Made by a program: the position numbers and the translations under genes. From UHGV virus genome UHGV-0351052: DNA of 64,000 nucleotides. One strand, 5' to 3'. Origin of the DNA: a virus. The notes beneath the pieces are model-generated. The model ran no database searches. It saw only the letters and a program-made list of their open reading frames with translations, and was not told the DNA's origin. Shown in pieces: positions 11,488 to 11,796 of the stretch; position 1 is the stretch's first letter; the number at the start of each line of letters is the position of its first letter.

Positions 11488-11595
11488 TATATTCTCTCAT
11501 TTATTGCAGCAAAAAACGAATTATACAATTCTTCATCATATGTATTTGATAATACTAACACGTTTTGCGATAAATATTAATTTAAAGGAGGATAC

Positions 11596-11796
11596 ATGGT
11601 ACAAAAATTAATGGCACTTGTTAATGCCATAAAAGGTAATAAGAAACGTATAGCTTTTACTATTTCTGCTATGATAGGAATTTTACTTTGGAATTTTGTT
11701 TTATCGCCAGTTGCTATTGCTCATGGCGTTAGTATTCCAGTAGTTACTCTTGATACATTCGTAGATTTAGCATTTGCTTTAGTTGGGTTAATTTAA
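11596..11796 (+). CDS. small two-helix hydrophobic protein, 66 aa; only intergenic plus-strand ORF in window
   Basis: AAAGGAGG about 5 nt before ATG 11596; no competing minus-strand ORF in the 305-bp dam-61 gap; convergent overlap with gene 61 stop. Confidence 0.35.
   Translation: MVQKLMALVNAIKGNKKRIAFTISAMIGILLWNFVLSPVAIAHGVSIPVVTLDTFVDLAFALVGLI

Follow-up and report, generated by a model that had tools for sequence, protein, structure and literature searches.

dam.1, a conserved gene of T-even phages convergent on the primase gene, may encode a late inner-membrane protein of holin ancestry

Introduction

Among the closest described counterparts of the protein considered here are the holins of family PF11351 (GTA_holin_3TM), which Pfam named after the release of gene transfer agents. 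The Rhodobacter capsulatus gene rcc00556 is presumably the founding member of this family, as the Pfam name implies. Experimentally, the holin label goes back to the endolysin–holin locus rcc00555–rcc00556, which is required for lysis and for the release of RcGTA (PMC5026251). dam.1 is an open reading frame (ORF) of 66 codons on the plus strand of the UHGV virus genome UHGV-0351052, located between dam and gene 61 in the stretch of 64,000 nucleotides analysed here (hereafter the window). The PF11351 holins and dam.1 share a membrane core, which consists of a transmembrane helix with an aromatic–polar–F–I/L–x–x–P pattern, a turn rich in Pro that closes with a conserved Asp, and a Gly-containing hydrophobic helix. 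However, the dam.1 product has 66 residues whereas the holins have 130–170, and the holins have about 75 N-terminal residues, a full second helix and a basic tail that dam.1 does not have. Furthermore, the three PF11351-type genes that served as templates in this study adjoin an endolysin or lysozyme gene, whereas dam.1 does not.

Two other groups of proteins invite comparison. The lysis proteins of T4, namely the T holin, the RI and RIII antiholins, rI.-1, rI.1 and the PseT.3/PseT.2 spanins, would share late expression and the inner membrane with dam.1. On the T4T map, dam.1 is found at about 17.7 kb, in the block of replication genes and far from t, e and rI. No sequence relationship of dam.1 to the T4 lysis proteins was found, the profile searches giving only members of the dam.1 family. 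The small accessory genes rI.-1 and rI.1, which are reported to influence lysis inhibition, provide a precedent (PMC2962797). Type I toxins such as Hok and TisB are similar to dam.1 in size and hydrophobicity, but dam.1 differs from them in that no antisense or antitoxin partner and no homology were found, in its late-type promoter, and in being fixed and syntenic in lytic phages.

The gene is already in the databases, where it is named dam.1 in T4T (HM137666, ADJ39749.1), RB69ORF029w in RB69 (NP_861719.1) and RB32ORF030w in RB51. It is also annotated in hundreds of other records, and the novelty implied by an earlier reading of the window made from its letters without database searches (the sequence-only reading) does not hold; what is new here is limited to the argument for a late promoter and to the chain of homology that leads to holins. 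Most of the 698 matching records carry the label "hypothetical protein", and two automated records are labelled "holin" or "holin family protein". A literature search under the names dam.1, RB69ORF029w, RB32ORF030w and T4Tp032 found no paper on the gene. Although T4 is the reference phage, no feature is annotated between dam and 61 (17626–17934) in the RefSeq record of its genome (NC_000866.4). A time course of the T4 transcriptome and proteome counted reads over the RefSeq annotation, which omits dam.1 (PMC9697503), and since the gene is missing from that list, omics analyses relying on it cannot report dam.1. The practical point is therefore a modest one: dam.1 belongs in the T4 reference annotation.

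Coding potential, conservation and synteny of dam.1

The 66-residue plus-strand ORF described in the sequence-only reading is present in the window with the sequence quoted there (Table 1). A chance ORF of at least 66 residues appeared in 414 of 5000 Markov-1 simulations of a 343-bp stretch (8%), and ORF length by itself is weak evidence for a gene. Nevertheless, dam.1 is almost certainly a real coding gene, because the ratio of nonsynonymous to synonymous substitution rates (dN/dS) is low, the changes are biased to third codon positions and the ORF is intact in relatives. Comparison of 21 distinct homologous DNA sequences, using pairs at unsaturated distances, has shown that dN/dS is 0.07–0.2 within groups of close relatives at dS of 0.1–0.6 and that the changes are mostly at third codon positions and synonymous. 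Between the window and one relative (L009), there are 3, 1 and 11 changes at codon positions 1, 2 and 3, respectively, with a dN/dS of 0.09, and a second pair (L016 and L022) gives 0.07.

A tblastn search returned 698 matching phage records, 686 of which cover at least 80% of the ORF, and a GGAG or GGAGG box is retained at all homologous loci; conservation of the ORF and its ribosome-binding site in related phages had been named as a check in the sequence-only reading. The protein encoded in the window shares 95.5% identity with its T4 counterpart and 100% identity with those of phages G8 and ECML-123-2, and it matches PHROG 2024 ("unknown function") along its full length (E = 8.1e-31; residues 2–66 against profile positions 1–65 of 65), which places it in the dam.1 family. 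The family extends down to about 20–25% identity with a length of 52–74 residues and with the columns of Trp-32, Asn-33, Pro-38, Gly-44 and Pro-48 kept. When 1.8 billion representative proteins were searched exhaustively with a profile, only 17 were retrieved, all of 33–70 residues. The ORF is matched in two pieces, at 86% identity, in a 151.8-kb record labelled T4 (MZ375356.1, 13385–13580); this is the only split match among the matches listed, suggesting a frameshift or a sequencing error in the record.

The window is a Tequatrovirus (T4-like) genome, and its region 10700–12900 shows about 98% identity with T4 and with phages closely related to it (vB_EcoM_F1, T4T, RB55 and others). Outside the window, dam.1 is convergent on gene 61 in Tequatrovirus (T4T, HY03), Mosigvirus (RB69, WFL6982), Gaprivervirus (VR26, EAWsc9), Kanagawavirus (Q7622), Jiaodavirus (KP179), Gelderlandvirus (Melville) and Moonvirus (Moon), and the same dam.1–61 arrangement is seen in T4T, HY03, RB69, WFL6982, VR26, Q7622, KP179, Melville and Moon. 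The window itself shows this conserved position, on the plus strand and convergent on the 3' end of gene 61, which dam.1 usually abuts. Homologous sequences are also found in Marfa-like and JS98/SP18-type phages, the synteny comparison being confined to the other seven genera; the genus to which JS98 and SP18 are assigned is our assumption. On these comparisons, dam.1 is conserved and under selection in at least nine genera of the Tevenvirinae. The neighbour on the other side varies and can be dam, an extra ORF or gene 56, and the relatives in Mosigvirus, Gaprivervirus and Kanagawavirus lack dam but keep dam.1. Therefore, dam.1 is tied to gene 61, not to dam.

Tandem copies occur in some relatives. 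The gapriverviruses VR26 (L004, 1495–1692 and 1701–1901) and VR25 carry two tandem dam.1 paralogues, one of each subfamily, and the second copies have a ribosome-binding site alone, without a promoter box. The second copy in EAWsc9 (L006) appears truncated or lost.

Probable relationship of dam.1 to PF11351 holins

Distant members of the family give repeated sub-threshold matches to the same part of PF11351 and to holin PHROGs. The family is also present in enterobacterial prophages, as proteins of 70 residues in E. coli and of 94–97 residues in Raoultella and Cronobacter. The best family member, P0130, matches PF11351 with an E-value of 8.5e-4 and 20.3 bits, which is below the gathering cutoff of 24.8. 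A tblastn search with P0130 gave weak matches to three genes in unrelated phages, each directly beside a lysozyme or endolysin gene. When these three genes were compared with PF11351, two passed (70 and 74 bits) and the third reached 24.2 bits against the same cutoff.

Profile–profile comparisons with hhalign connect the family to these three holins in two steps: the T4-like members match the prophage type of 94–97 residues with a probability of 97.8% (E = 1e-12), and the prophage type matches the three holins with a probability of 96.6% (E = 6e-10). The whole family matches the holins with a probability of 80% (E = 1.4e-5; score 33.2), with residues 21–65 of dam.1 aligned with residues 81–126 of the holins. 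The T4-like members alone gave 53% (E = 1.4e-4), and an alignment of 22 T4-like sequences (A2) gave 3.3% (E = 0.013), which is not significant alone; the link to holins thus rests on the broader T4-like set and the prophage intermediates. With column-shuffled templates, the scores averaged 9–10 (standard deviation 1.8) and did not exceed 17.2, none of the 400 reaching 33.2, and the reversed template gave 12.3. The shuffles are far below the real score, and the similarity is therefore not compositional. Together, these alignments make common descent of dam.1 from the membrane core of PF11351 holins likely. In the alignment, the C-terminal helix of dam.1 corresponds to a truncated second membrane helix of the holins, the dam.1 product having an N-terminus of 18 residues and ending within that helix. 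Compared with the holins, dam.1 has thus probably been shortened at both ends, so that the N-terminal domain (about 75 residues), half of the second helix and the basic tail at the C-terminus are missing.

The prophage relatives lie at the accessory end of the prophage (L032, 6001–6811; L034, 681–2049; L029, 3700–6213), after ORFs of about 200 and 107 residues. Neighbouring ORFs of 196 and 106 residues have no PHROG assignment and give no functional clue. In Raoultella-type loci, the dam.1 relative is directly before a gene with a RelA_SpoT domain, and Phage_lysozyme and GIY-YIG genes are nearby.

Predicted structure and topology of the dam.1 product

The predicted protein is hydrophobic, with a grand average of hydropathy (GRAVY) of 1.28 and a 19-residue hydrophobic maximum that lies over residues 19–42, the hydropathy value being about 2.0 over residues 19–41. 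Of the first 18 residues, five are basic, and the tail contains Asp-53 and Asp-57. An AlphaFold2 (AF2) model built on a 22-sequence alignment has a mean predicted local distance difference test (pLDDT) score of 83.6 and consists of helices 2–12, 16–42 and 52–65, with a pLDDT of about 90 for helix 16–42. In agreement with this, a single transmembrane segment at residues 21–41 and no signal peptide have been predicted for RB69ORF029w by Nolan et al. (PMC1524935 supplement). By the positive-inside rule, the N-terminus would be cytoplasmic, and one transmembrane helix would lead from it to a turn in the periplasm, after which the short C-terminal helix would come. The description of the product in the sequence-only reading as a two-helix hydrophobic peptide is thus right as regards a hydrophobic membrane peptide, but one full transmembrane helix with a short C-terminal helix is a better description than two transmembrane helices. 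A Foldseek search with the AF2 model against viral structures gave only family members at meaningful E-values, and a sequence-profile search of the PDB gave chance matches to transmembrane helices only (E > 0.2). Pfam and NCBIfam scans of four divergent homologues gave no match.

Predicted promoter, ribosome-binding site and transcription downstream

The box GATAAATA upstream of dam.1 matches the T4 late consensus TATAAATA at seven of eight positions, and the mismatch is confined to the first base, at -13 (G for the consensus T). The consensus is placed at -13 to -6, and -13 is described as poorly conserved (PMC1524935). Among T4 late promoters, 32 of 50 listed sites are perfect and nine have A at -13 (PMC2988020). 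A box of the TATAAATA type without a -35 element, as seen in late genes, is therefore present before dam.1, with a deviation only at the tolerant position.

An ATAAATA or TAAATA core is located 12–22 nt before the ATG in every independent homologous locus while the flanks diverge. The box is GATAAATA in the T4-like lineage, AATAAATA in some Tequatrovirus, Mosigvirus and JS98-like loci, CATAAATA in Gaprivervirus and Jiaodavirus, the perfect TATAAATA in Kanagawavirus and Marfa-like phages, and ATTAAATA in Gelderlandvirus and Moonvirus. In HY03-type phages the upstream sequence is unrelated, and homology to the window begins at GATAAATA or up to about 3 nt upstream of it.

Such sites are depleted in the window. 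There are only 11 NATAAATA sites, the box before dam.1 being one of them, against about 39 predicted by dinucleotide shuffles (about 3.5-fold depletion), with TATAAATA observed 4 times against 10 expected and VATAAATA observed 7 times against 29 expected. A perfect TATAAATA at 9751–9758 on the minus strand lies just upstream of a minus-strand ORF (9483–9719), which we take, from its position and sequence, to be the late gene soc. The depletion of the octamer and the copy before this Soc-like ORF suggest that the surviving copies may be functional.

The sequence-only reading had proposed a sigma-70-like promoter (TTGATA...TAAATA), which is not borne out. TTGATA (11546–11551) and TAAATA (11571–11576) are separated by a 19-nt spacer, the pair was not reported by a sigma-70 scan, and the -35 hexamer is lost in HY03-type and other lineages whereas the late-type box is retained. 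On these sequence features, we hold with good confidence that GATAAATA is a T4 late promoter, not a sigma-70 promoter. Transcription is predicted to start near 11582, which would give a leader of about 14 nt. The Shine-Dalgarno sequence AAAGGAGG, which the sequence-only reading called near-perfect, is strong, but the spacer to the ATG is 4 nt, not 5 nt. AAGGAGG occurs only once on either strand of the 64-kb window, as the ribosome-binding site of dam.1.

A scan of 10600–13200 found no plus-strand terminator-like site, and the predicted RNA fold of 11785–11875 is no better than those of shuffled sequences (z = 0.54). Since no plus-strand terminator was found and the stop codons of dam.1 and gene 61 overlap, a late dam.1 transcript would run antisense into gene 61. 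In the Jiaodavirus KP179 (L026, about 2193–2212), the two genes do not overlap and are separated by a GC-rich hairpin, GGGGCTTTGGCCCC, which looks like a bidirectional terminator. The box nearest to dam.1 in KP179 is very close to the ribosome-binding site, although there is a second GATAAATA about 40 nt upstream.

Proposed role of dam.1 and alternative explanations

These observations lead to the reading that we prefer, with some reservation, namely that dam.1 is a genuine T-even-type gene encoding a late-transcribed small inner-membrane protein of holin ancestry with a holin-type function. RNA polymerase carrying gp55 would start at the minimal late promoter GATAAATA late in infection, and the transcript would have a short leader with a strong Shine-Dalgarno sequence. 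The 66-residue product would insert in the inner membrane with its basic N-terminus in the cytoplasm, one transmembrane helix (residues 19–42), a periplasmic Gly/Pro/Asp turn and, at the C-terminus, a short hydrophobic helix. By self-associating there, the protein may, together with the T holin, change membrane permeability or the time at which lysis occurs, as a late and non-essential activity. The function in lysis or permeability is the most tentative part of this proposal, plausible but less likely than not. The holin-like character suggested by the sequence-only reading survives in part, as probable remote descent from a holin membrane core. dam.1 falls short of the gathering threshold of PF11351, does not have the full architecture of its members and is not encoded in a lysis cassette: it is not beside an endolysin or spanin gene, its neighbours being dam, gene 56 or an extra ORF on one side and the primase gene on the other.

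Several points weigh against this proposal. The window protein gives no match in Pfam and NCBIfam scans even at E ≤ 10, the holin template for hhalign consists of three sequences, and the T4-like-only profile is marginal against holins, varying from 3 to 53% with the members included. The C-terminal helix of about 14 residues with two Asp residues is too short to span the bilayer. In T4-type phages, dam.1 is far from the genes for endolysin and holin, and t, e, rI, rIII and the spanins already suffice to explain how T4 lyses its host. The first base of the promoter box departs from the consensus (G, not T), and the nearest box in Jiaodavirus precedes the ATG by only 12 nt, which would put the predicted start inside the ribosome-binding site. 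A scan of RB69 late promoters with a hidden Markov model (HMM) in 2006 listed no site before RB69ORF029w.

Some alternatives concern the ORF itself. A chance ORF, in a gap that owes its conservation to signals on the minus strand (for example a terminator for gene 61 or a promoter for dam), would be in keeping with the non-significant ORF length (8% of simulations), with the minus-strand TATAAT (11525 to 11520) and with the terminator-like hairpin (11630 to 11611). However, such hairpins are no more numerous than expected by chance, the frame is intact down to about 25% identity across genera with a ribosome-binding site always present, and the low dN/dS with its third-position bias effectively refutes this explanation, whose likelihood is negligible. 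The suggestion of the sequence-only reading that dam.1 is a small membrane toxin, expressed from the sigma-70 promoter in the manner of type I toxins, draws on a small hydrophobic peptide with a basic N-terminus and on hexamers resembling -35 and -10 elements at the positions given above. It is very improbable, since the hexamers have a 19-nt spacer, the sigma-70 scan is silent on the pair and the -35 hexamer is absent where the late-type box is kept, in HY03-type and other lineages. Moreover, no antitoxin-like partner element was found and nothing suggests a toxin–antitoxin arrangement, the gene is fixed and syntenic in lytic phages, and such homology as it has points to holins and not to any known type I toxin.

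Others concern what a genuine gene does. The late promoter could chiefly make RNA antisense to the primase (61) message, with the ORF as a secondary passenger, given the lack of a plus-strand terminator after the ORF and the overlapping stops; but strong purifying selection on the peptide and the conserved ribosome-binding site indicate that the protein itself is selected, and the Jiaodavirus hairpin before the primase gene suggests that transcription stops there. As the principal role this is improbable, although an antisense role and a protein role are not mutually exclusive. It is possible, if unlikely, that dam.1 encodes a real late membrane protein with a job unrelated to lysis, such as membrane-associated head assembly, exclusion of superinfecting phages or interaction with a host envelope protein as candidates, and that its resemblance to holins reflects a shared ancestral membrane hairpin. 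dam.1 is never beside lysis genes in the T4-type loci inspected, the N-terminal domain and the C-terminal tail of the holins are missing from its product, its prophage homologues are in accessory regions beside GIY-YIG and RelA_SpoT-domain genes and not in a lysis cassette, and the conserved W-N...P...G...P...D motif resembles a specific interaction surface. Against this, there is no positive evidence for any particular alternative, the only detectable homology is to holins, and some E. coli prophages have a Phage_lysozyme gene at a distance of about 1.5 kb.

Extending the proposed holin-type function leads to a more speculative idea, to which we give little weight: T-even phages may carry a second, overlooked holin-derived protein, a minimal late membrane hairpin of PF11351 descent that would act next to the unrelated T holin to adjust the timing or the inhibition of lysis or the depolarisation of the membrane, while the unterminated transcript could also silence the primase message by antisense. 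If dam.1 does affect lysis timing or the state of the membrane, it would be a new component of a much-studied lysis system; if it does not, dam.1 would be another conserved small membrane ORF without an assigned function.

Genomic context and minor features of the locus

The features of the locus are collected in Table 1. dam and gene 61 are both on the minus strand, and 78 minus-strand ORFs of at least 90 residues cover 49 kb of the 64-kb window, in accordance with the statement of the sequence-only reading that all neighbouring genes are on that strand. Every plus-strand ORF of at least 90 residues in the window is inside a minus-strand gene. dam.1 is the sole plus-strand gene within a long block of minus-strand early and middle genes. 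The plus strand is the usual strand of late genes, and dam.1 sits inside the early replication block. The gap of 305 bp between dam and gene 61 follows from the end of dam at 11487 and the beginning of the gene 61 interval at 11793, and the convergent 3' overlap with the primase stop codon was also seen correctly. The minus-strand ORFs in this gap, which had been said not to exceed 17 codons, reach 20–24 codons (with GTG, TTG or ATG starts) and are still trivial.

Table 1. Coordinates of dam.1, its expression signals, the segments of its predicted product and the neighbouring genes in the window
Feature	Position	Strand	Remarks
dam.1 coding sequence	11596–11796	+	66 residues and stop codon, ATG start; PHROG 2024; predicted small inner-membrane protein
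Late-promoter-like box GATAAATA	11569–11576	+	7/8 against the T4 late consensus TATAAATA, positions -13 to -6
Shine-Dalgarno sequence AAAGGAGG	11584–11591	+	4 nt before the ATG
Residues 1–18	11596–11649	+	Amphipathic basic N-terminal segment (Lys-4, Lys-13, Lys-16, Lys-17, Arg-18), predicted cytoplasmic
Residues 19–42	11650–11721	+	Predicted transmembrane helix with near-invariant Trp-32, Asn-33 and Pro-38
Residues 43–66	11722–11793	+	Conserved turn (Gly-44, Pro-48, Asp-53) and short C-terminal helix 52–65
TTAA	11793–11796	both	Overlap of the stop codons of dam.1 (+) and gene 61 (-)
Gene 56, dCTPase	10129–10662	-	One of the genes around dam.1
dam, DNA adenine methyltransferase	10708–11487	-	Flanking gene, context only; outside the dam.1 unit
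Gene 61, DNA primase	11793–12821	-	Constant convergent neighbour of dam.1
Gene 61.1			Between 61 and 61.2 in the listed gene order
Gene 61.2 (AdfA)	12990–13616	-	Anti-DarT factor A; PF23813, full-length, E = 1e-135; known T4 gene
spackle	13616–13957	-	PF25676; known T4 gene

On the minus strand, a perfect TATAAT at 11520–11525 precedes the dam start by about 33 nt and is not accompanied by a good -35 element. A weak terminator-like hairpin with a T run is also found on the minus strand at 11611–11630, inside the 5' end of dam.1; the number of such hairpins is equal to the chance expectation.

The HY03 locus (L002, KR269718) has an extra minus-strand ORF of 185 residues (1788–2348) between dam.1 and dam, which abuts the dam start, and many relatives show the same insertion pattern, their megablast matches being split in two. 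The product of this ORF gives weak sub-threshold Pfam matches to the DpnII (E = 0.004) and BanI restriction endonucleases, and the ORF is a possible remnant of a DpnII-like (GATC-specific) nuclease gene directly upstream of the Dam methylase gene.

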